64,000 bases of DNA from an uncultured bacterium (lineage in GTDB: Bacteria; Patescibacteriota; Minisyncoccia; UBA6257; 2-01-FULL-56-20). Within the stretch, counting starts at the first letter, position 1; each line of letters starts with the position of its first letter. Below are positions 3,121-54,257 of the stretch, piece after piece. The position numbers and the translations under genes are program-made. The stretch lies in assembly GCA_963696395.1 (NCBI GenBank), contig CAVOJZ010000002.1:559317-623316 (forward strand). Reading direction: 5' to 3'. The notes under the pieces are model-generated. The model searched no databases, was not told where the DNA came from, and was given only the letters and a program-made list of their open reading frames with translations.

Positions 3121-3912
3121 ATGATTATTGAAGTCAAAAATCTTACAAAGCGATTCGGGAGTTTTGTCGCCGTGGACGACGTCTCATTCGGCGTTGAACG
3201 GGGGGAAATTTTCGCGTGCCTTGGGCCGAATGGCGCAGGAAAAAGCACGACCATAAAGATGTTGATCACGCTTCTTGCGCCGACATCCGGCAATGCGGTG
3301 ATCAACGGGCACGACATCGTGCACCACGCCGCCGAGGTGCGGAACTCAATCGGCTATGTCCCGCAGGCGATCTCGGTTGACGGCACGCTCACGGCATATG
3401 AAAACCTTGTGCTCTTCGCCCGCCTCTACGACATCCCACGCACCGAACGCGCCGGACGCATCAAGGAAGCGCTCGCATTTTTGAAACTTGAAGACCACGC
3501 AAATGCCCTCGTCAGGACTTTTTCCGGCGGCATGATCCGCAAAATGGAAATCGGCCAGGCGATGTTGCATCGTCCTGCGGTGCTCTTTCTCGACGAACCG
3601 ACGACCGGCCTTGATCCCATTGCCCAGCAGAGCGTCTGGGGTCACCTTTCGGATTTGCGCGAAACCGGAACAACTATATTTTTTTCAACGCACAACATGG
3701 AAGAGGCGGATGGCGTGAGCGATCGCGTTGCCATCATGAACCAGGGGAAAATTGCTATCATCGGATCGGTGCCGGAACTGAAAGCAAAAACAAACAAGCA
3801 GAACGCGACGCTCGAGGATGCGTTTATCTTCTTTACCGGCAACACTATGAAGGAAACAGGAAACTTCCGTGAAATACGGAAGATGCGGCAAAACGAACGA
3901 AGACTTGGATAA
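3121..3912 (+). CDS. ABC transporter ATP-binding protein
   Basis: Walker A GPNGAGKST, signature LSGGM, Walker B LFLDEPTTGLD. Confidence 0.9.
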   Translation: MIIEVKNLTKRFGSFVAVDDVSFGVERGEIFACLGPNGAGKSTTIKMLITLLAPTSGNAVINGHDIVHHAAEVRNSIGYVPQAISVDGTLTAYENLVLFARLYDIPRTERAGRIKEALAFLKLEDHANALVRTFSGGMIRKMEIGQAMLHRPAVLFLDEPTTGLDPIAQQSVWGHLSDLRETGTTIFFSTHNMEEADGVSDRVAIMNQGKIAIIGSVPELKAKTNKQNATLEDAFIFFTGNTMKETGNFREIRKMRQNERRLG

Positions 3913-3917
3913 CGAAT

Positions 3918-4694
3918 ATGATCAACTATCTTTATGAAACGATAAAAAAATCGTATGTCATGGCCGAGATGGAGGCCCGCAAACTGATCCATGACCCGAC
4001 CGAGCTTATCTCGCGCGCCGTTCAGCCGATTTTGTGGCTCGGCATTTTCGGTGAAGCGTTGAGTAAGGTCCGTGCGATACCAACGGGAGGGCTCACGTAT
4101 CTTCAATTTATCACGCCGGGAATTCTCACGCAGTCGGTGACCTTCGTCGCCATTTTCTACGGCCTCTATATCATCATGGACCGCGACACCGGCATATTGC
4201 AGAAATTGCTCGTAACGCCGACGCCGCGCCTCGCGCTCGTGTGGGGAAAAATGATTTCCGCCGGTTTGCGCGGGTTGAGCCAGGCGCTCATCGTATTTAT
4301 TTTTGCGCTCATCCTCGGCGTGCAACTGCAGATTTCGCTGTGGTCCATTATTGGCGTGATCATCATCGTGATGTTGGGTGCCGCGGTTTTCACGGGCATT
4401 TCCATGATCATTGCCTCGATCGTAAAAACGAGGGAGCGGTTTATGGGCATCGGGCAAGTGATCACGCTCCCGCTTTTCTTCGCCTCGAACGCAATTTATC
4501 CGGTTTCGATTATGCCGGGATGGTTGCAGGTTGTCGCGAATATTAATCCATTGAGCTATATGGTTGACGGCTTGCGGGCTCTCATGCTGACCGGCAGCGG
4601 CGCAGGCGTCGGCTTCGACATCGGCGTTCTCGCGATTGTTGCGCTCCTCATCTCCTTCCTCAGCGCATGGATGTATCCGAAAGTGGTGATATAA
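3918..4694 (+). CDS. ABC-2 type transporter permease
   Basis: Six hydrophobic segments, 4-nt gap after ATPase gene, typical ABC-2 permease size. Confidence 0.8.
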   Translation: MINYLYETIKKSYVMAEMEARKLIHDPTELISRAVQPILWLGIFGEALSKVRAIPTGGLTYLQFITPGILTQSVTFVAIFYGLYIIMDRDTGILQKLLVTPTPRLALVWGKMISAGLRGLSQALIVFIFALILGVQLQISLWSIIGVIIIVMLGAAVFTGISMIIASIVKTRERFMGIGQVITLPLFFASNAIYPVSIMPGWLQVVANINPLSYMVDGLRALMLTGSGAGVGFDIGVLAIVALLISFLSAWMYPKVVI

Positions 4695-35879: not shown

Positions 35880-37277
35880 CTATAGCCCACGGACGGCCAA
35901 GGCGAACTGGTCGCCTCGATCGTATTCGTTCTTGAAAATGCCGAAGCTGGTCGCGCCCGGGGAGAGGAGAATGATGTCGCCTGGTTGTGCGGCTGCGAGC
36001 GCCGCCGCGAACGCATCTTTCATATTCAAGACGATCGTTGCGTTATAATCGGGCGGCAGAACCTTCAATAATTTATCGGTTGCTTTGCCCTTAAAGAGGA
36101 TGAGGTGTTTTACGGTTTTCGGGATGTAGTCGGCGAGCGCTTCGAAGGGGAGTTCTTTGTCGCTGCCGCCGGCGATGAGAGCGATCGGTTTATTTTGAGG
36201 GACGAGCGCCGCTAACGCCGCGATGGTTGCTTCGGGCGTTGTTGAATTCGAATCGTTATAGAAGGCGATGCCTTTTTTCTCTCCCAGATATTCCAAGCGC
36301 CCGGGAAGACCATTAAATTTTTCTAAAACAGTTTTTGCTATTTCATCCGGGATTCCAAGCGCCCGCGCTACGGCAACTGCATAGGCTGCGTTGGTGCGAT
36401 TATGTTTGCCGACGAGCGCAATGTTCCAGGTTTTGGGTATTGTTGCATCGGTTATGCATGTTCCTTTGAGACTGCCGAACTGAGCCTCGACACTCTTTTT
36501 TATTTCTGATGTTGTGATAAATATGTCGCCCTTTTTCTGAAAGCGGGCGATGGCTGCTTTGTCACGAAAGTAACGTTCCATATCTCCCTTGTAGTAGTTC
36601 ATGTGGTCGGGCATAAAGTTCGTCCAGACCGCAATGTGCGGGCTTATTGACGCTTCTTCGAATCCCTGGAGCTGCCACGAGTCGAGTTCTAGGATCACGA
36701 GGTCTCCCGGCGCAACGCCTCGAAGGAGATTGAGCGTTGCAACGTCGCGTTCATTTCCGCCAAGACCCGGGTTTTTTCCGGCGGCTTTCGCAATTTCATA
36801 AATAAGATGCGTTGTGGTTGATTTGCCACGCGTGCCCGTAATTCCCACCACCGTCGCTCCGGAAAGTTTTGCAAAAAGCGAGGCGTCCATCGCAACCGGA
36901 ATGCCAAGTTCCCGTGCGTGAGCAAGGTAGGGCGAATCAAGCGGCGCATTCGGTGCGCGAATGATAAGGTCGCGCCCTTCAAAGTCCTCCATGGTGTGCC
37001 CTCCGAGATGATAGGTTATAGTTGGAAATCTTTCGAGCCTGGCGAGTGAGGGTGCGAGTTCATCTTTTGTTTTCAAATCGGTCACGATGAGCTCGGCTCC
37101 CGCTTCCGCAAAAAATTCCGCGTCGCCGACGCCTCGCCCGAGCAGGCCGAGCCCCATCAGCGTTATTTTTTTCCCTGCAAACTGTGCTTTTATGTCGGAC
37201 GATTCCATTGCTTTGATAATTGCACTAATTGCGAGCTTTGACAATTCATTAAAAAAATCGCTATAATTCTTTGACAT
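35880..37277 (-). CDS. murD: Mur ligase family protein, MurD-like
   Basis: ATP-binding P-loop GITGTRGKSTTT, Mur ligase middle/C-terminal pattern, 465 aa. Confidence 0.7.
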   Translation of the reverse strand: MSKNYSDFFNELSKLAISAIIKAMESSDIKAQFAGKKITLMGLGLLGRGVGDAEFFAEAGAELIVTDLKTKDELAPSLARLERFPTITYHLGGHTMEDFEGRDLIIRAPNAPLDSPYLAHARELGIPVAMDASLFAKLSGATVVGITGTRGKSTTTHLIYEIAKAAGKNPGLGGNERDVATLNLLRGVAPGDLVILELDSWQLQGFEEASISPHIAVWTNFMPDHMNYYKGDMERYFRDKAAIARFQKKGDIFITTSEIKKSVEAQFGSLKGTCITDATIPKTWNIALVGKHNRTNAAYAVAVARALGIPDEIAKTVLEKFNGLPGRLEYLGEKKGIAFYNDSNSTTPEATIAALAALVPQNKPIALIAGGSDKELPFEALADYIPKTVKHLILFKGKATDKLLKVLPPDYNATIVLNMKDAFAAALAAAQPGDIILLSPGATSFGIFKNEYDRGDQFALAVRGL

Positions 37278-37283
37278 TCATCG

Positions 37284-37406
37284 CGGGAGGGTTGGGAAAG
37301 GTTTTCCGGGGAGCCCCATAAGCTCCCGAAGCAGGTCCGAGTCCTGCCCCCGCAACACGCAAGGTTTGAGTATCGAGTAAGACCGGGAGGCTTTTGTCGC
37401 ACACCC
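37284..37406. repeat. Family B-related element, short variant X
   Basis: Shares gtccgag(t)cctgcccccgcaacacgcaagg...agcaagacc...ttttgtcgcacaccc with 38260-38349 and the first part with 39571-39595. Confidence 0.6.
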
Positions 37407-37455
37407 GAGAGGTTTCGCTTTGGTAGCATCGATTTGAATAAGCTAAGATTAAAGG

Positions 37456-37830
37456 ATGCAACATCCTCAAAAGCCTACGAAAGACGAGCAAATTCTCTCG
37501 CTCATTTCGCATCAAGCGCGAGAGCTGGTTGAAAAATACACTTCACCCGAACAGTTGAACGTAGGTTCTTATAAAGAAATATTCAACGTTTCGAAAAGTG
37601 ACATTGCAATGTATCTTAAAAAGCATTTTGCGCTAACGGATTTAGTCCCAAGCCCTGAATCTAAGAAAGATGGTTTCTATGCAATCTCCATCGAAGGAGG
37701 GTTCCGTATCTATGAGCAATATGACGGCATTCGCGCGAATGAGAAAACGACATCGAATTCCGATGGTGTTTGGGATGCATTTGCAGAATACATTATTAGA
37801 ACGAGTGGAACCGGACTGTCCTTTAAGTAG
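37456..37830 (+). CDS. hypothetical protein
   Basis: 124-aa ORF inside repeat island; no motif. Confidence 0.4.
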   Translation: MQHPQKPTKDEQILSLISHQARELVEKYTSPEQLNVGSYKEIFNVSKSDIAMYLKKHFALTDLVPSPESKKDGFYAISIEGGFRIYEQYDGIRANEKTTSNSDGVWDAFAEYIIRTSGTGLSFK

Positions 37831-38013
37831 AATCTATCAATACGATATTCCGGTCTCAAAAGCAGCTTTTCAAAAACATCGCAACGGCTTGCCCAAAAGA
37901 GGTTCGCCCTTTGGAACGAAGTAAAGGCAAGTTTCAGGAAAACAAACTGACCGAGACGCCTCAAGTGAGACAGGGAGAGGATTTTCGAGAAGACCTTGTA
38001 AGGGCCTCTTAAT

Positions 38014-38349
38014 AAAAGTCCCAGACCGAGTGCGGCAACAGCTTTCGTTTTTCTCTCTGGGAGGGTCGCGTCGTTTTCTGCTGAAAACGCGCTACCTCTC
38101 GCCGCCTTCGCGGTTCCGAGATACCCTCTCGGAGAGAAAAACGAAAGCTACTGGACAAGACTCGGACGGGGAGGGGGTCGGGGAACCGGGAGGTTCCCCG
38201 CGTAGGAAGGCGCTGGAAACCGAGAGGTTTCCAGGGAGCGAAGCGCGTTGCGCGCGGAGCGACGTCCGAGCTTCCTGCCCCCGCAACACGCAAGGCCAAG
38301 TTCAGAGCAAGACCAAGTAGGCCTCAAGGCATGATTTTGTCGCACACCC
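38014..38349. repeat. Composite repeat copy Y: 5' arm + inserted A2 + family B structured element + tail
   Basis: aaaagtcccagaccgagtgcggcaaca / A2 / gactcggacggggagggggtcggggaaccgggaggttcccc...ggaaaccgagaggtttcc...gtccgagcttcctgcccccgcaacacgcaagg; near-identical to 39298-39595. Confidence 0.7.
38040..38150. repeat. Family A hairpin element copy A2
   Basis: Outer stem gctttcgtttttctctctgggaggg / ccctctcggagagaaaaacgaaagc; core tcgcgtcgttttctgctgaaaacgcgctacctctcgccgccttcgcggttccgagatac. Confidence 0.7.
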
Positions 38350-38699
38350 AGGACTAGATGATCTTGCTATCACATGCAAAGAGGACATGAAAGACAAAGT
38401 GTTGGCTGTCATCAAGCAGTATTCCCCGATTTATATTCCCCAGGTTCAGCCGATCCATAAGTCGTGGCTGTAGCACTTTCGTTTATCTCTGACCTTCGAA
38501 TGCATCCAATGATCAAGCGCAACCGCAATTCAGAAAAGAGGATACAACAGACGGAAGAAGTTATAGTTCGTATAGATGAAGGAGGAAATGCCTATTGCAT
38601 AGAACTAATCTTTGATCACAGGGGATTGATGTCAAAATTAAAAGCCATGGAAACTACAGATACTACTTTGGAAGAAGCGCAAGGATAGAACTCACCCCC

Positions 38700-39224
38700 A
38701 TGCACGCAAAAATGATTTTTATTATTGTAATTATCGCCATTGTCATTGCCCTCATCGCCGGATTCTTGTGGTATCGAAGTGGGATTCACCAGGCGGAAGA
38801 CGACTTTTTGTATGCTAACAAATCCTCTGGAACGCTTAAGTCGTCTTTCAATTGCAGCACCATCCCCGAGATAACTTTCGAGTATCCTCTTTTCAAAGGC
38901 CTTGATAAACCATACCTTATCTATTCGGATAATGAGTGTTTGATAACGTTGAATCGAATTCCGAATGACAGGCCTAATGGAGCAGTCATAACTGTCACGA
39001 AACTGCCAACGGAAGCAACGCCAAGTCCAACGTCACAGCTGATCCCAAAAAATAATTACGGCGTTCAATATCAAGAACTATCTGGCGTTGATGGCTATCT
39101 TTTTTACACCAGCTTGCAAGGATATTATTATCGGGTTGCATTTTCGAATTATTCCAATGTCTCAATTGACCATGATTTGTTTTGGAATACTATTCTTGAT
39201 AGTTTTCGGGAGGTAAAATCGTGA
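38700..39224 (+). CDS. hypothetical membrane-anchored/secreted protein
   Basis: N-terminal TM MIFIIVIIAIVIALIAGFLWY, 174 aa, between the two composite repeat copies. Confidence 0.5.
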   Translation: MHAKMIFIIVIIAIVIALIAGFLWYRSGIHQAEDDFLYANKSSGTLKSSFNCSTIPEITFEYPLFKGLDKPYLIYSDNECLITLNRIPNDRPNGAVITVTKLPTEATPSPTSQLIPKNNYGVQYQELSGVDGYLFYTSLQGYYYRVAFSNYSNVSIDHDLFWNTILDSFREVKS

Positions 39225-39297
39225 TTCGTATCAAGACCGAGACGCTTCGAAAGTAAGCGGAAGGGGATCCCCAAGAATGCTTGTGGGGTTTGCACCC

Positions 39298-39595
39298 AAA
39301 AAGTCCAAGACCGAGTGCGGCAACACTGGCAGTAAGCAGTCCAAAAGAATTTTGAGTACGCGTCCGCGCGTACTCGCGCGGCGCTCCATCTCGGCCGCCT
39401 TCGCGGCCTCCGATAGCCCCAAAATTCTTTTGGACTGCTTACTGCCCAATTGTTATGAGATCGCAAGACTCGGACGGGGAGGGGGTCGGGGAACCGGGAG
39501 GTTCCCCGCGTAGGAAGGCGCTGGAAACCGAGAGGTTTCCAGAGAGCGAAGCGCGTTGCGCGCTGAGCGACGTCCGAGCTTCCTGCCCCCGCAAC
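39298..39595. repeat. Composite repeat copy Z: 5' arm + inserted A3 + family B element (tail truncated by A4)
   Basis: Same order as copy Y; B sequence 39467-39595 differs from 38159-38287 at only a few positions. Confidence 0.7.
39328..39446. repeat. Family A hairpin element copy A3 (26-bp perfect outer stem)
   Basis: ggcagtaagcagtccaaaagaatttt ... aaaattcttttggactgcttactgcc; core tacgcgtccgcgcgtactcgcgcggcgctccatctcggccgccttcgcggcctccgatagc. Confidence 0.75.
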
Positions 39596-39700
39596 CACTT
39601 TTGCTTTTTCTCTTTCTGAGGGTCGCGTCGTTTTCTGCTGAAAACGCGCTACCTCTCGCCGCCTTCGCGGCTCCGAGATACCCTCAGAAAGAGCAAAAGC
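39596..39700. repeat. Family A hairpin element copy A4
   Basis: Outer stem cttttgctttttctctttctgaggg / ccctcagaaagagcaaaagc; core nearly identical to A2. Confidence 0.7.
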
Positions 39701-39789
39701 CTCCGATCAATCGCAGTGTTTCTTGCCCTTTTGATAAGCGGCTTTTAGTTGAAAATACGGACAGGGTGCGATATATTGTGAATGCAATT

Positions 39790-39862
39790 GCCGACGTAGC
39801 TCAGGGGTTAGAGCGGGCGTTTCATAAGCGCTAGGTCGGAGGTTCGACTCCTCCCGTCGGCA
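39790..39862 (+). tRNA. tRNA-Met (CAU; elongator or Ile-lysidine type), no encoded CCA
   Basis: Acceptor gccgacg/cgtcggc (G1-C72, so not initiator), anticodon loop ttCATaa, T-arm ggagg-ttcgact-cctcc. Confidence 0.75.
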
Positions 39863-39887
39863 CATCCGGTAATGCTATAATCATGGA

Positions 39888-48508: not shown

Positions 48509-49559
48509 AAGTTGAGGAGGAGATGCGCAAGCAAGCTTGCGTATCTCCGACGAAACGAGGGATGAAAAGCTTCTTAGCTTTACAGCCCGAAGTTACCAAG
48601 GTATTTAAACCTTTTTTGGGGAAAAACTCAACTGCCCGGGAAGCTATTGACACTATTTTTCAGGTGAGTATACTTACTCCTAAGATACGAATGTTCAAGA
48701 ACGTAAATCTTTCACCAACCACCGGCTAGCCCCGCAATTTTAGATTGTGAAGCAGCCGCCGTGCGCGGCTGATTTTATTCTTGGGTATGTCGTGTCGAAC
48801 GTTTTTTACCAATATTCGTTCGACTACTTGAGCGAACTTCCGAATTGTAGAGTCGGAAGATTCATATGAAGCTCCGCGCCATCTTATGTCCGACTGTGCC
48901 TACAAGCACGGGCGGGCAGAGGCCTACGTAACGCATTTCTAGGCCTCCAATTTCTCTTGGCAGGCGGAGCATGTTCTTAAATAGAACAAAAAAGTCAGCA
49001 TTGGGATGGTTGGCACATAAGGGCGAATGGTGGATGCCTAGACTAGAAAAGGCGATGAAGGACGTGGCGTAGCAACGATATGCCTCGGGGAGGTGCGTAG
49101 CAACCTGTGATCCGGGGATTTCCGAATGGGGAAACCTAGTTGAGTAAACCTCAATTGCGTGGAGCAATCCACGAGCGTACCCGGCGAAGTAAAACATTTC
49201 AGTAGCCGGAGGAAAAAAGAACAAGCAGTTTATTCCCTGAGTATCGGCGAGAGAAAAGGGAAGAGCCCAGACTAAGGTTGTGATTTATCACAGCCTTGGA
49301 GTTATAAGTGTTGAACGCTCTCCTTCGCGAATAATAAAGGGCGCAGTAATGTGCTCTCTATTATTTGCGAGCGGAGGTGGAGGAGTTAAAAAATCATTGG
49401 TTAGCCGAAATCAGCTGGAAAGCTGATACCAGAGAGGGTGATAGTCCCCTAGGCGAAAACTTTTGGTCTCCTTAGTTTATCTACTTGAGTACTTCGAAGT
49501 AAAACAGTTTCGAAGGAATTAGCCAGTACTATCTGGCAAGGCTAAATACTTTTCTAGAT

Positions 49560-49596
<37 letters not shown>

Positions 49597-51020
49597 CAGG
49601 CCGGTGAGGCCGTTGAAATAGAACCTGAAACCATTTGTCTACAAGGAATTGAAGCACGAACGGCTGGGGAGCAATCCTCGGACGAGTGCGACAATGTGCC
49701 TATTGAAGAATGATCCAACGACTTATTTTTGTGTCGCTTGTCTAAACGCGCATAGCGTGTAGGCGCAGCGAAAGCGAGTCTTAATAGGGCGAAATTAAGG
49801 CGGCACAGTATAGACCCGAAGCGTGATGAGCTTACCTTGGCCAGGGTGAACTCTCGAGAAATCGAGAGGGAGGCCCGAACCGGTTGATTGTTCAAAATCT
49901 TCGGATGAGCTGAGGTAAGGAGTGAAAAGCTAATCGAATTACGTAATAGCTGGTTCTCTCCGAAATAGTTTTAGGACTAGCGGCGAATGTTCCCCGTGGG
50001 GGTAGAGCACTGGATGATCTGTAATGGTCGAAAGACCGCCAGATCAATCAAACTCCGAATACCGCGGGTTAAAAGTTCGCTAGTTAGACTGTGGGGGCTA
50101 AGCTCCATGGTCGCGAGGGGAAGAGCCCAGATCGTCATCTAAGGTCCCGAAGTCCATGCTCAGTGTGAAAGGTAGTCATCACCCATAGACAGATAGGAGG
50201 TTGGCTTAGAGGTAGCCATCCTTTAAAGAGTGTGTAACAACTCACTATTCGACGGGTGGTGGCGCCGAAAATGTACCGGGGCTCAAGCATGGCACCGAAG
50301 ATACGAATTTACATGTCCCTCGGGACGTGTATCTGGTAGGAGAGCATTCCGGCCTGCAGTGAAGGTCAACCCGCGAGGGTGACTGGAGCGGCCGGAAGAG
50401 AAAATGTTGGAATGAGTAACCACAATCCCAATGAGAAATTGGAACCCCGAAAATCTGAGGTTTCCGTGGCACTGGCAATCAACCACGGGTTAGGCGGTCC
50501 TAAGGCAATCCCGAAAGGGGCAGTCGATGGAAAGCTGGTTAATATTCCAGCCCTCCTATGTGTTTATCCTGCGCGTGCAAGGGAAATAATCATGTATGTC
50601 TTATTGGTTTGGTATCGCTGCGGACAAGTTCAAGCGGTCCGCGGCGGAAGGTGAGGAATTTACCTCATCGACACATGAGAAGAGCCCTTCGAGAAAAGCG
50701 CGTTTGTTATGACACGTGGGATCCGTACCGTAAACCGACACTGGTGGATAGGGCGAGTAGCCCAAGGGGAACGAGTGATTTGCCTCTAAGGAACTAGGCA
50801 AAAAAGCGGCCGTAAGTTCGCAATAAGGCCTGCCCTCCGCAAGGAGGGCCGCAGCTAAAGTATCTCTGGCGACTGTTTACCAAAAACACAGCTCCCTGCT
50901 AACTCGCAAGAGGATGTATAGGGGGTGACGCCTGACCGATGCGAGAAGGTCAAGGTTGGGGGTGGCGTAGCAATACGTTGCTCACTGACTCAAGCCCTCG
51001 TCAATGTCAGCGATAACTAT

Positions 51021-51766
51021 GAAATACGATTGTAGTTATAAAATTTGGCTATATGCTGGAATACCTGAGTATCCGACATTACCGTTGGTGCAAAAATAAA
51101 TTAAAAAATCATTAAAACTGATTTTGGAATTTACTTTTTGTTTGCTACGGTGAAAATATGATCGGTGCAGACAATCAGCAGGAAAGGCTTTGGTCGCAAA
51201 AATGGCTTAACGATATTCCAGAAAATATCGGTTGGTATCTTTCGGGCTTCGTAGACGGAGAAGGGAGCTTTAACGCTTCGCTTCGGAAGGGAAATGGGCA
51301 TCGCCTCGGATGGCAGGTGCAGTTAACTTTTAATGTAGCCCAGCGAGATATTACTGATTTGGAATTATTGAAGCGTCATTTTGCATGTGGACGATTACAA
51401 AATCGAAAGGACGGAGTTCGTTATTTCGTCGTTTGTGATTATCGTTCCATTATCAATCGGGTTATACCATTCTTTGAGAAATTTCCTTTCTATTCTGTTT
51501 CAAAACAGAAAAACTTCTTTCTTTTCAAACAAATCGCACTTCTGATGGGCCAGGGCAAACACCTTGATCCAGAAGGATTCCGCGAGATTGTTTCTATAAG
51601 AGAAAGATTAAACGAAGGGAAAGGACGAAGAAGAAAATATAACGAGAGCGATATGATTAAAGAATCCTCAGAGACTACACGCCAAACTTCGCGTATCGCG
51701 AAGATGATATAGTCCGAACTGCATGGCGACATGCAGAGTTGCTCTCTCACGAGCAGAATAACAGAT
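51021..51766 (+). mobile_element. group I intron 1a in 23S at the E. coli 1917-equivalent site, carrying a LAGLIDADG ORF
   Basis: 5' exon ends ...gataactaT; P7 R element cagagactacacg (about 51678) and S aagatgatatagtcc (about 51703); ends in G before exon aatcgttctaaggt. Confidence 0.6.
51158..51712 (+). CDS. single-motif LAGLIDADG homing endonuclease (intron-encoded)
   Basis: YLSGFVDGEGSF dodecapeptide near N-terminus, 184 aa, inside 23S intron. Confidence 0.75.
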   Translation: MIGADNQQERLWSQKWLNDIPENIGWYLSGFVDGEGSFNASLRKGNGHRLGWQVQLTFNVAQRDITDLELLKRHFACGRLQNRKDGVRYFVVCDYRSIINRVIPFFEKFPFYSVSKQKNFFLFKQIALLMGQGKHLDPEGFREIVSIRERLNEGKGRRRKYNESDMIKESSETTRQTSRIAKMI

Positions 51767-51780
51767 GAATCGTTCTAAGG

Positions 51781-52018
51781 TGGAATTGAAACTGCCTTAG
51801 TAAAACCTAACTATATGCTGGAACACCCGCGCATATCAGAGTACCGCAAGGTAACAATCTCTGATCGAAGCGGACAATCAGCAGGAAACTTCTTCGGAAG
51901 GATCCTCAGAGACTACACGTTAGGATCGCCGGGTGGCGATAAGATATAGTCCGAACTGCATAGCGATATGCAGAGCCAAGCAGAAATGTTTTGGCCAACA
52001 TAGGTTGTAACATGTTTG
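51781..52018 (+). mobile_element. group I intron 1b (ORF-less, ~238 nt) in 23S at the E. coli 1931-equivalent site
   Basis: Q caatcagcagg (about 51872), R cagagactacacg (about 51908), S aagatatagtcc (about 51938); joined exons give aactat-aatcgttctaaggt-agcgcaattcc, matching E. coli aactataacggtcctaaggtagcgaaattcc. Confidence 0.55.
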
Positions 52019-52716
52019 AGCGCAATTCCTTTTCGGGTAAGTTCCGAAGCGCACGAAAGGCGTAACGACCGGAGAACTGTCTCAGAGGCAAGCTCGGTGA
52101 AAATGCGATTCCCGTGAAGACGCGGGATACCTGCAGCGGGACGAAAAGACCCCGGAAGCTTTACTGCAGCTTGGTATTGATTTTAGAGTTCTACTACGTA
52201 GCGTAGTGGTGAGGATTTGAAGCACAGCTCTCGGGTTGTGTGGATCCGACAATGAAACAGCCATTTTTAGAACTTTAACGTCTAACCGGTTGGGGACCTT
52301 ACAAGGAAACCCAACTGAGACAGTGCTTGGTAGGCAGTTTAAATGGGGCGTTTTCCTCCAAAAGAGTAACGGAGGAGTTTATTAAGGTCAGCTTAGCCCG
52401 GATGGAAATCGGGCAGGACGTGCAAACGCAAAAGCTGGCTTGACTGCGAGACCTACAAGTCGAGCAGGTGCGAAAGCAGAAGTTAGTGACCCGACGGCTA
52501 TGTTCATGTAATTTATTATATGAATTCTTAATAGGAAGGCCGGAGACACCGGATAAAAGCTACTCCGGGGATAACAGGCTAGTATTGTCCGAGCGTCCCT
52601 AGCGACGACAATGCTCGGCACCTCGATGTCGGCTCGCCACAGCGCGGGGGTGGAGAAGCTCCCAAGCGTTTGGCTGTTCGCCAATTAAAGTGGCACGTGA
52701 GCTGGGTTCAGACCGT

Positions 52717-53425
52717 TGAATACAAGAACCCTTAACGACGAATCGAACACGGCGGCTATCTCGAGTAATCGAGATTGAAAAAATCGACTCATATCGGTGA
52801 AACCCTAGCGTTCATGACCTGTGAGCGTATCTAAATGTTTATTAAAAATAAATTAAAAACTATTTTGTATGAACAGGCGATCATAGGATAATACCGAGGG
52901 AAGTCGCATATGGAATTTTCGTCAACGCAAAAAGCATATCTTGCAGGTTTTCTTGATGGTGATGGCAGCATCTATGTACGATTGAAACCAAATAGCGATT
53001 ATCGTTATGGGTTTCAGGTCGCACCGTGTGTTGCATTTTTTCAATCATCAAAAGACCGCAAGAGCTTTGAAGAGATCTGCAATCTCATTGGTAACGGATA
53101 TCTGCGGGAAAGAAACGATGGCATGTTGGAGTATGTTATGCAGAAACAACAGGCGATCTACTCTTTTCTTTTGGACATACGGCCATTTCTTATTCTTAAG
53201 AAACGGCAAGCCGATTTGATGCTCGTGATTTTGGAAAAGAAAATGCTCGTAAAATCTAAAGAAGATTTTATAGCGTTGATGGAGTTAATCGATCAATTCC
53301 GAGAATTAAATTATTCGAAGAAACGAAAGATTCATATGTTGACCCTCTAGAGACTACACGTCGATCTCCTCGAAAGAGGATGGTGGTATAGTCCGGCACT
53401 CCTGGTAACAGGAGAATACAGTATG
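52717..53425 (+). mobile_element. group I intron 2 in 23S at the E. coli 2593-equivalent site (I-CreI site), carrying an I-CreI-like ORF
   Basis: Exon junction ttcagaccgT | ... G | cgtgagacaggtcgg reconstitutes ...accgtcgtgagacag (E. coli gaacgtcgtgagacag); P7 R/S elements agagactacacg / tatagtcc at about 53350/53390. Confidence 0.7.
52910..53350 (+). CDS. I-CreI-family LAGLIDADG homing endonuclease (intron-encoded)
   Basis: YLAGFLDGDGSIY motif; overall similarity to I-CreI (FLxxxxPFLxLKxxQAxLxLxIxE; DQxxxLNxSKxRK) at the homologous rDNA site. Confidence 0.8.
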   Translation: MEFSSTQKAYLAGFLDGDGSIYVRLKPNSDYRYGFQVAPCVAFFQSSKDRKSFEEICNLIGNGYLRERNDGMLEYVMQKQQAIYSFLLDIRPFLILKKRQADLMLVILEKKMLVKSKEDFIALMELIDQFRELNYSKKRKIHMLTL

Positions 53426-54136: not shown

Positions 54137-54257
54137 GATGTCGGTGTTTTATCCTTGTGTGTCCCACCTCTTCCCATTCCGAACAGAGAAGTGAAAGCAC
54201 AAGCATCCGATGATACTCATCGCTTCGGCTTTGGGGAAAGTAGGATATGCCGACATC
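54137..54257 (+). rRNA. rrf: 5S rRNA
   Basis: gtcccacctcttcccattccgaacagagaagtgaaag matches the 5S loop B/C consensus; ends gatgtcgg/ccgacatc pair; an extended flanking helix 54125-54268 is followed by a T-run. Confidence 0.8.

Follow-up and report, generated by a model that had tools for sequence, protein, structure and literature searches.

The interval between murD and a tRNA-Met gene in contig CAVOJZ010000002.1, from an uncultured bacterium of the Patescibacteriota, raises the question of why a stretch with few and small genes should be filled with structured repeats. We analysed 64,000 nucleotides of this contig, referred to below as the window, whose numbering is used throughout; the tRNA genes, promoters, repeats and open reading frames (ORFs) of the interval all lie on its + strand. 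The initial annotation had distinguished two repeat families, A and B, preceded by shared 5′ arms, and had proposed an undescribed RNA or mobile system. Each half of that proposal was partly right, as a mobile system is involved and A and B lie outside Rfam. A known kind of process, in which DNA integrates site-specifically behind the 3′ end of a tRNA, largely accounts for the low-coding island. In the reading that we consider probable, the region is a tRNA-anchored integration hotspot containing remnants of large serine recombinase (LSR) elements together with A-B modules. The single fact of highest value is that the repeat previously called the short form of B is an unannotated, non-canonical initiator-type tRNA gene, designated here tRNA-X.

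A repeat search of the window placed the A, long B and arm repeats where they had been described. The long form of B occurred at 38156-38287 and 39464-39595 (132 nt, 98% identity), A at 38043-38141 and 39600-39698 (89% identity) and the 27-nt arms at 38014-38040 and 39299-39325 (96% identity). The spacing was 1308 nt for B and 1285 nt for the arms, in agreement with the near-identical copies about 1.28 kb apart that had been reported. The A repeats were bounded by inverted arms of 27 nt (38040-38066/38123-38149), 27 nt (39328-39354/39420-39446) and 21 nt (39603-39623/39680-39700), and a 23-nt block of the "short B" (37342-37364) was identical to 38273-38295 in the first long copy, B-Y. Pattern searches in the shuffled whole window gave a chance expectation of 0 matches for the repeat-unit patterns, and the A and B units folded far more stably than shuffled sequence (z = -5.3 and -8.1). 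Both flanking genes were present as claimed, and so were the few small ORFs of no known family, of 124, 28, 74 and 174 aa, none of which matched Pfam or PHROG. As the initial annotation had supposed by eye, A and B matched no family of Rfam 15 at gathering scores or at E ≤ 10, tRNA-type signals being the only ones seen.

The "short B" turned out to be a tRNA gene followed by its trailer, and it is the long B that derives from the tRNA rather than the reverse. tRNA-X, with anticodon CAU, occupies 37282-37357 and reads CGCGGGA...CCCAUAA...GCAGG-UCCGAGU-CCUGC-CCCCGCAACA. Directly upstream (37238-37267) lies a sigma-70 promoter with TTGACA, an 18-nt spacer and TATAAT, which agrees with the consensus at 12 out of 12 positions. 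The gene combines a C1×A72 mismatch with C33 and a D arm resembling that of selenocysteine tRNA (tRNA-Sec), with a 6-bp stem and a 4-nt loop. Because of this D arm, which replaces the canonical 4-bp stem with a 7-11 nt loop, ARAGORN did not call tRNA-X, and its best covariance model was that of tRNA-Sec (29.1 bits, E 0.006, against a gathering score of 47). Relatives were retrieved by MurD among species-representative genomes and comprised Paceibacteria/Parcubacteria metagenome-assembled genomes, the closest having 62-71% MurD identity. tRNA-X was 92-100% identical in 17 of them and occupied the same place beside murD, although MurD itself was only 62-71% identical. A scan of metagenomes with the 5′ part of the tRNA-X sequence added 78 further loci. 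Among 57 sequence variants, the T stem took four forms (GCAGG, GCAAG, GCCGG or GCGGG, each facing a complementary partner) and the anticodon stem two (GGGGAGC/GCUCCCG or GGGAAGC/GCUUCCG), all of them compensated. Conservation beside murD, compensated stems and a perfect promoter together demonstrate that this predicted gene is a real tRNA gene. In addition, the A7×C66 mismatch, C33 and the Sec-like D arm were all kept across about 96 loci, and standard tRNA finders are blind to the gene.

The assignment of tRNA-X as an initiator, made from sequence features, is likely. The C1×A72 mismatch was found in most of the 57 variants, and the 7-nt anticodon loop CCCAUAA, containing CAU and with C and not U at position 33, was closed by the covarying stem. 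The 3′ strand of tRNA-X, CCCCCGCAAC, equals the acceptor 3′ strand of Escherichia coli tRNAfMet; CCCCCGCAA was present in 57 out of 57 variants, followed by C in 54 and by A in 3. Initiator identity is not proven, as the pairs closest to this loop depart from the canonical pattern: instead of three consecutive G-C pairs, positions 29-31:39-41 carry loop-proximal C-G, G-C and A-U, and the G-C run lies further out.

Comparison of loci revealed that the interval downstream of tRNA-X is a recombination hotspot. In the roughly 20 relatives with both ends visible, tRNA-X and the next tRNA-Met were separated by 23 nt (loci L012 and L143) to 7.7 kb. The cargo was mostly unrelated between genomes (116 out of 187 ORFs were singletons) and was oriented along the + strand in 33 cases and the - strand in 11. 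Extra direct copies of the tRNA-X 3′ end, degenerate in some loci, were found downstream of the gene in many of them, and L014 is a classical island in which the tRNA 3′ end plus tail forms a direct repeat of 150 nt. Thus, an intact tRNA stands at one border, direct repeats of its 3′ part follow downstream, and the content varies at a conserved site. In the window, the order is tRNA-X; a tail, the 124-aa ORF and a C element with its arm; an A-B pair; a second tail, the ORFs of 28, 74 and 174 aa and a second C element with arm; a second A-B pair; and a last A followed by tRNA-Met. The first tail (37358-37406, ACGCAAGG...UAAGACCG...UUUUGUCGCACACCC) is the conserved trailer of tRNA-X-type 3′ ends, and its second copy, after B-Y, lies at 38290-38349 and comprises repeat families D3 and D7. 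The 124-aa ORF occupies 37456-37830 and the other three lie within 38387-39224. A promoter-like site (39749-39777) and tRNA-Met (39790-39863) form the conserved far border of the hotspot. The 174-aa product was also found in a second sample, and look-ups of this product and of an NTPase gave only short contigs of the same strain, broken at repeats. As a further observation, the long tails of L014, L153 and L088 and the window segment 38328-38370 end with CCGACAGGACUCGGAC, an inverted T-arm copy identical to the 5′ strand of the outer helix of B, so that direct and inverted copies of the tRNA end alternate along the arrays.

Recombinases were encoded at the same site in relatives. The commonest Pfam families of the cargo were Recombinase, Zn_ribbon_recom and Resolvase, which are those of LSRs. 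In six loci (L133, L148, L141, L130, L161 and L162), the LSR gene converged on tRNA-X and abutted or overlapped its GCAACA end; homologues overlapped the 3′ ends of tRNA-Gln and tRNA-Asn likewise, and the whole family amounted to 7517 proteins at E ≤ 1e-30. The LSR reading frame continues into the 3′ end of the target tRNA in antisense, as seen in L161 (10001-11878, at tRNA-X), L163 (10001-11647) and L165 (5829-7463), with tRNA-Gln and tRNA-Asn among the targets, and therefore the attachment site is located within the end of the recombinase gene. Integration sites in tRNA genes have reportedly been divided into sublocation classes by Williams in 2002.

The other end of these elements explained the shared 5′ arms. 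The arms are real repeats, as first described; they did not prove to be arms of one large RNA but attachment (att) remnants at element ends, and form the 3′ tips of a conserved element of about 100 nt, C. In the window, C plus arm lies at 37942-38041, ending in a degenerate tRNA-X 3′ end (GACCGAGUGCGGCAACA), and again at 39229-39327; it also occurred in L016, L153, L101, L110 and L157. In L161, a complete 10.1-kb LSR element begins at tRNA-X and reaches as far as a copy of C-arm (nhmmer E 5.5e-16), terminating in CCAAGACCGAGUACGGCAAC. This one complete element identifies C plus arm as the distal end of LSR integrative elements, and the two window copies were read as such because C-arm closes the element of L161. 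The small hairpins of C vary in a compensated manner among the window copies, L016, L153, L101 and L161 (CUC/GAG, CUUC/GAAG and CUU/AAG, plus CAAG-NNNN-CUUG). C may be a third structured motif.

Motif B carries the tRNA end within the array. Copy Y (38151-38289) has a leader (38156-38168) that pairs with its own copy of the T-loop and T-stem (38263-38276) and encloses two GNRA hairpins; its 3′ end (38264-38287) copies that of tRNA-X, with two extra bases in the T-stem strand. A second full copy, Z, lies at 39459-39597. In general, B measured about 135 nt and ended in the exact 3′ end of the resident tRNA-X, sometimes with small scar duplications. In L095, L098 and L137, these short duplications in the tRNA-like end read CCCCCGCCCCCGCAAC, CCCCCGGCCCCCGCAAC and CCCCCGCCCGCAAC and look like recombination scars. 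We aligned ten full copies from eight loci and compared them with 500 shuffles and slid controls. The outer helix joins the leader, GCAGGAC(UC/GA)GGACG, to the T-loop/T-stem copy, and the interior contains the two GNRA-capped hairpins and a short helix flanked by tandem G-A pairs. Pairing held in 91.7% of cells (27-45% in slid controls) and both sides changed in 11 out of 34 pairs; four of the five measures were never reached by the shuffles, and the remaining one, further pair types, was reached by 10 of the 500. The leader followed the T-loop variants of each lineage, with AAUCGGAC facing GUCCGAUU in L016 and GAGAAC facing GUUCGAG in L009. Over its full length, the B model also fitted tRNA-X itself, with about 20 bits in nearly every locus, which indicates that B is a derivative of tRNA-X.

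About 10 of the approximately 70 informative tRNA-X loci contained B. Its copies were confined to positions downstream of tRNA-X and were in every case preceded by A or a plain hairpin. The tail that follows tRNA-X in L005 is the one that follows B in L095: it sits after tRNA-X when B is missing and after B when B is present. This shift indicates that A-B is an inserted module that duplicates the attachment sequence. L095 itself (4755 nt) contains two units of tRNA-X, A and B in opposite orientation, and ARAGORN called the tRNA gene of the second unit as tRNA-Met (3888-3957); the opposed units may be an assembly palindrome.

Motif A is represented in the window by four copies. Copy Y (38040-38149) consists of a 27-bp closing stem and a three-way-junction core (38055-38133), copy Z1 (39328-39446) belongs to a diverged subfamily with a perfect 27-bp stem, and copy Z2 (39603-39700) resembles Y. 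The fourth, A0 (455-559, + strand), had lain outside the reported region and directly follows tRNA-Arg (378-450). The alignment of 15 trimmed copies, with 500 shuffles and slid controls, supported a three-way junction closed by a palindromic stem of 20-27 bp. Helix P2 has nine pairs and a UNCU loop, and all nine covaried with 100% pairing; P3, capped by a CUNC loop, is made up of 3+5 pairs. In the whole alignment, 92% of cells were paired (35-48% in slid controls) and both sides changed in 21 out of 25 pairs, a level attained by none of the 500 shuffles. Covariation between copies, which the initial annotation had put forward as a check, was thus found for A as well as for B. Copies Y and Z2 differ by one of about 56 core bases, and their stems by about five compensated positions in 24 bp, a pattern that suggests either that the cores undergo gene conversion or that the arms are corrected with the hairpin as template.

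A covariance-model scan located A directly 3′ of tRNA-X in many loci and always in the orientation of the tRNA. Besides tRNA-X, copies followed tRNA-Arg in the window, tRNA-Pro in L009 (three related genomes lacked it there) and tRNA-Met in L157 and L095, and one preceded tRNA-Ile in L029; a solitary copy, in L057, lies upstream of murD behind TATAAT boxes of its own. Some relatives have a plain long hairpin, at times terminator-like, at the position of A, and simple hairpins with U-tracts occur in L136, L118 and L006. Directly after tRNA-X in L088 and L098 we observed a second hairpin type in this position, with long, unrelated, fully paired stems and a shared apical GGGCUCUUUUUA(A/U)UG. A itself is not an intrinsic terminator: no terminator-like site was found on the + strand at any copy, and the flanks are U-poor in most copies. 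A role as a genome-wide tRNA terminator was rejected, given that tRNA-Gly, tRNA-Asp, tRNA-Met and tRNA-Pro of the window lack such a hairpin, as was the idea that A after tRNA-Arg is an att scar, as no second copy of the tRNA-Arg 3′ end was present. Judging from its covariation, the inner junction of A is under structural selection, and it may be as DNA that the long stem is maintained. In its position right behind tRNA or tRNA-like ends, A is taken to be a putative co-transcribed trailer RNA whose long duplex would serve as a processing or insulating stem.

Taken together, sequence comparison establishes the tRNA, the hotspot, the link to LSRs, C-arm as an element end, and the conservation and structure of A and B. 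The attachment site is the 3′ end of tRNA-X, ...GUCCGAGUCCUGCCCCCGCAAC(A); element-encoded LSRs place their DNA immediately behind GCAAC(A), and such an element closes at its far side with C and its arm, which copies the tRNA 3′ end in degenerate form. For the order of integration events and for the roles of A and B beyond their structure, we infer the following scheme. The two ORF-bearing units would be LSR-element derivatives, decayed or miniature, without a recombinase. The two gene-less A-B modules, of about 270 nt each, would have been interleaved between these remnants by site-specific recombination. Since the 3′ end of B recreates the attachment sequence of tRNA-X, each A-B module would add a landing site, and the array would grow by accretion.

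Several observations weigh against this scheme. No recombinase is present anywhere in the 64-kb window, although relatives have one at the same site. The left junction of an LSR element joins tRNA-X to the 3′ end of the LSR gene, whereas in the window tRNA-X is joined to a tail, and therefore the window remnants require additional deletions or rearrangements. No excision product or empty-site polymorphism was seen, and the sole other sample has the same arrangement. Serine recombinases need no long sequence identity; hence, the exact, co-evolving tRNA 3′ end in B requires gene conversion, a tyrosine-type crossover in the T-loop or selection on an RNA. A after tRNA-Arg and tRNA-Pro is not accompanied by a duplicated tRNA end and is therefore not simply an att feature. 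Finally, neither strand of the A stems is favoured by G-U pairs, and folding is slightly better for the antisense strand, which leaves the transcribed strand of A unproven; its assignment has the constant orientation as its only basis. The claim that the GNRA loops mark the + strand held for B, whose loops recur in relatives as GGGA, GCAA, GGAA and GAGA; for A, G-U asymmetry lends the + strand reading no support.

Alternatively, A and B may be ordinary, vertically inherited noncoding RNA genes of the host that form an operon with tRNA-X, cargo having inserted nearby by coincidence. In that case, the tRNA trailer would give rise to A as a small RNA, and B would act as a regulator or decoy derived from the tRNA. 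We regard this explanation as possible, though the less expected outcome. It draws on the structure-preserving covariation of both motifs, their invariable orientation along the tRNA, the strong tRNA-X promoter directly upstream, the promoter-like boxes preceding the A of L057 and the UGnUAUGAG motif, a possible extended -10 box, upstream of most B copies. Against it stands the patchy distribution already described, of B among tRNA-X loci and of A after tRNA-Pro; moreover, several copies per locus, scar duplications at the 3′ ends of B and tandem partial copies (L136) resemble insertion and accretion. A could instead be a selfish palindromic DNA repeat, of the kind of repetitive extragenic palindromes (REPs), their hairpin-forming doublets (REPINs) or miniature inverted-repeat transposable elements (MITEs), propagated as a DNA hairpin by a transposase acting in trans. 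The multi-copy, sporadic occurrence of A would fit, as would its near-perfect stems, which comprise 599 Watson-Crick pairs against transition mismatches numbering 13 and 20 by strand, without strand bias, and which diverge fast and are compensated as the cores stay identical. On the other hand, stems that differ within one genome cannot be terminal repeats bound by a transposase, and the four of the window differ in sequence; no target-site duplications are visible, the P2 pairs of the inner junction covary and the orientation relative to tRNAs is fixed. On balance, we think it unlikely.

Two simpler explanations fared worse. Recent, functionless segmental duplication would account for the identity within the window (98% for B, 96% for the arms), but the sequence between the copies is unrelated, and A and B recur with compensatory changes in Paceibacteria genomes whose MurD is 62-71% identical and in metagenome contigs; a private duplication, which the initial annotation had named as an alternative, is highly improbable. 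There is also next to no likelihood that the units are a fragmented or insertion-laden RNase P RNA, transfer-messenger RNA (tmRNA) or signal recognition particle RNA, as might be suggested by eye from AAAGUCC, GAGUGCGGCAACAG, GCAAGGCCAAG and CUAGAUGA. No Rfam match was obtained up to E = 10, ARAGORN found no tmRNA, AAAGUCC is the junction at which the T-loop copy starts, and the motifs lie in separate modules. Other candidates were discarded: a group I intron in the tRNA (tRNA-X is uninterrupted, and B has neither anticodon arm nor intron core), a hammerhead at CUGAUGAG upstream of B (no Rfam hit, and UGUU within it is complementary to the tRNA 3′ end), TIGR arrays (unlike in unit size and array form), a phage origin (the exact core patterns were absent from viral contigs and blastn against a phage collection was empty) and a retron msr/msd (the island ORFs lacked any Pfam match, so no reverse transcriptase was detected).

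A tRNA-anchored hotspot remains our preferred reading, and the closest known system is the tRNA-anchored island, as in the tycheposons of Prochlorococcus, islands that are built by integrase-bearing elements and their remnants (bioRxiv 10.1101/2020.12.28.424599). The locus shares with such islands an intact border tRNA, partial tRNA 3′ ends repeated downstream, strain-variable cargo, tandem accretion and integrases that are tyrosine or large serine recombinases. It differs from them in its units of 0.9-1.3 kb without an integrase in the window, in its host (Paceibacteria, of the Candidate Phyla Radiation, CPR), in the overlap of the LSR gene's own 3′ end with the tRNA 3′ end and in the covarying structured-RNA motifs A, B and C borne by element ends and modules. 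The likeness to integrons is by analogy only. Both place short cassettes, most of them in one orientation, behind a strong promoter and have hairpin-forming recombination sites between them; here, however, there is no IntI and no attC layout (R″/L″-L′/R′), the sites derive from the tRNA 3′ end, and the recombinase is a serine enzyme. Membership of the integrons was rejected, since the island encodes no tyrosine integrase and A lacks RYYYAAC...GTTRRRY ends. A long shot would be an integron-like gene-capture platform of reduced genomes, in which small cassettes, inserted by a serine recombinase specific for tRNA ends, would form an array under the control of the strong tRNA promoter. A, B and C would then be recombination sites and tRNA-style RNA-processing punctuation, and B a landing pad that spares the essential initiator tRNA.

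As for the RNAs, noncoding RNAs derived from or linked to tRNAs include the tRNA-like domain of tmRNA, the bacterial Y RNA YrlA and the transcripts of plant dicistronic tRNA-snoRNA genes. In common with this group, B retains both termini of a tRNA and has other helices in place of the middle, and A lies in a tRNA trailer and would be released by tRNA 3′ processing. On the other side, B has no tag frame, its T-loop is sequestered by the leader and it matches no Rfam family. No smpB or rsr gene was identified near B. With REPs, REPINs and MITEs, A shares its nature as a multi-copy intergenic palindrome of 100-140 bp; its variable stem and conserved core are the reverse of theirs, and it differs also in the lack of target duplications and in its covarying inner junction.

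Elsewhere in the window, the 23S rRNA gene (49007-52792) measures 3786 nt against a model of 2925 positions and contains a group I intron at 51750-51973 (67.8 bits); the surplus beyond this intron points to additional insertions. Behind it, at 54139-54256, is a 5S rRNA gene.

With these results, the annotation of a CPR lineage gains an initiator-type tRNA that is non-canonical and had been missed. The results indicate that an active tRNA-anchored site of gene exchange persists even in genomes of about 0.8 Mb, where it is served by a large family of serine recombinases that target tRNA ends. They also contribute two, possibly three, covarying RNA motifs outside Rfam, one of which is a tRNA derivative with a leader that locks its own T-loop. 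If A or B did guide processing or recombination, they would constitute a new link between tRNA biology and mobile DNA.

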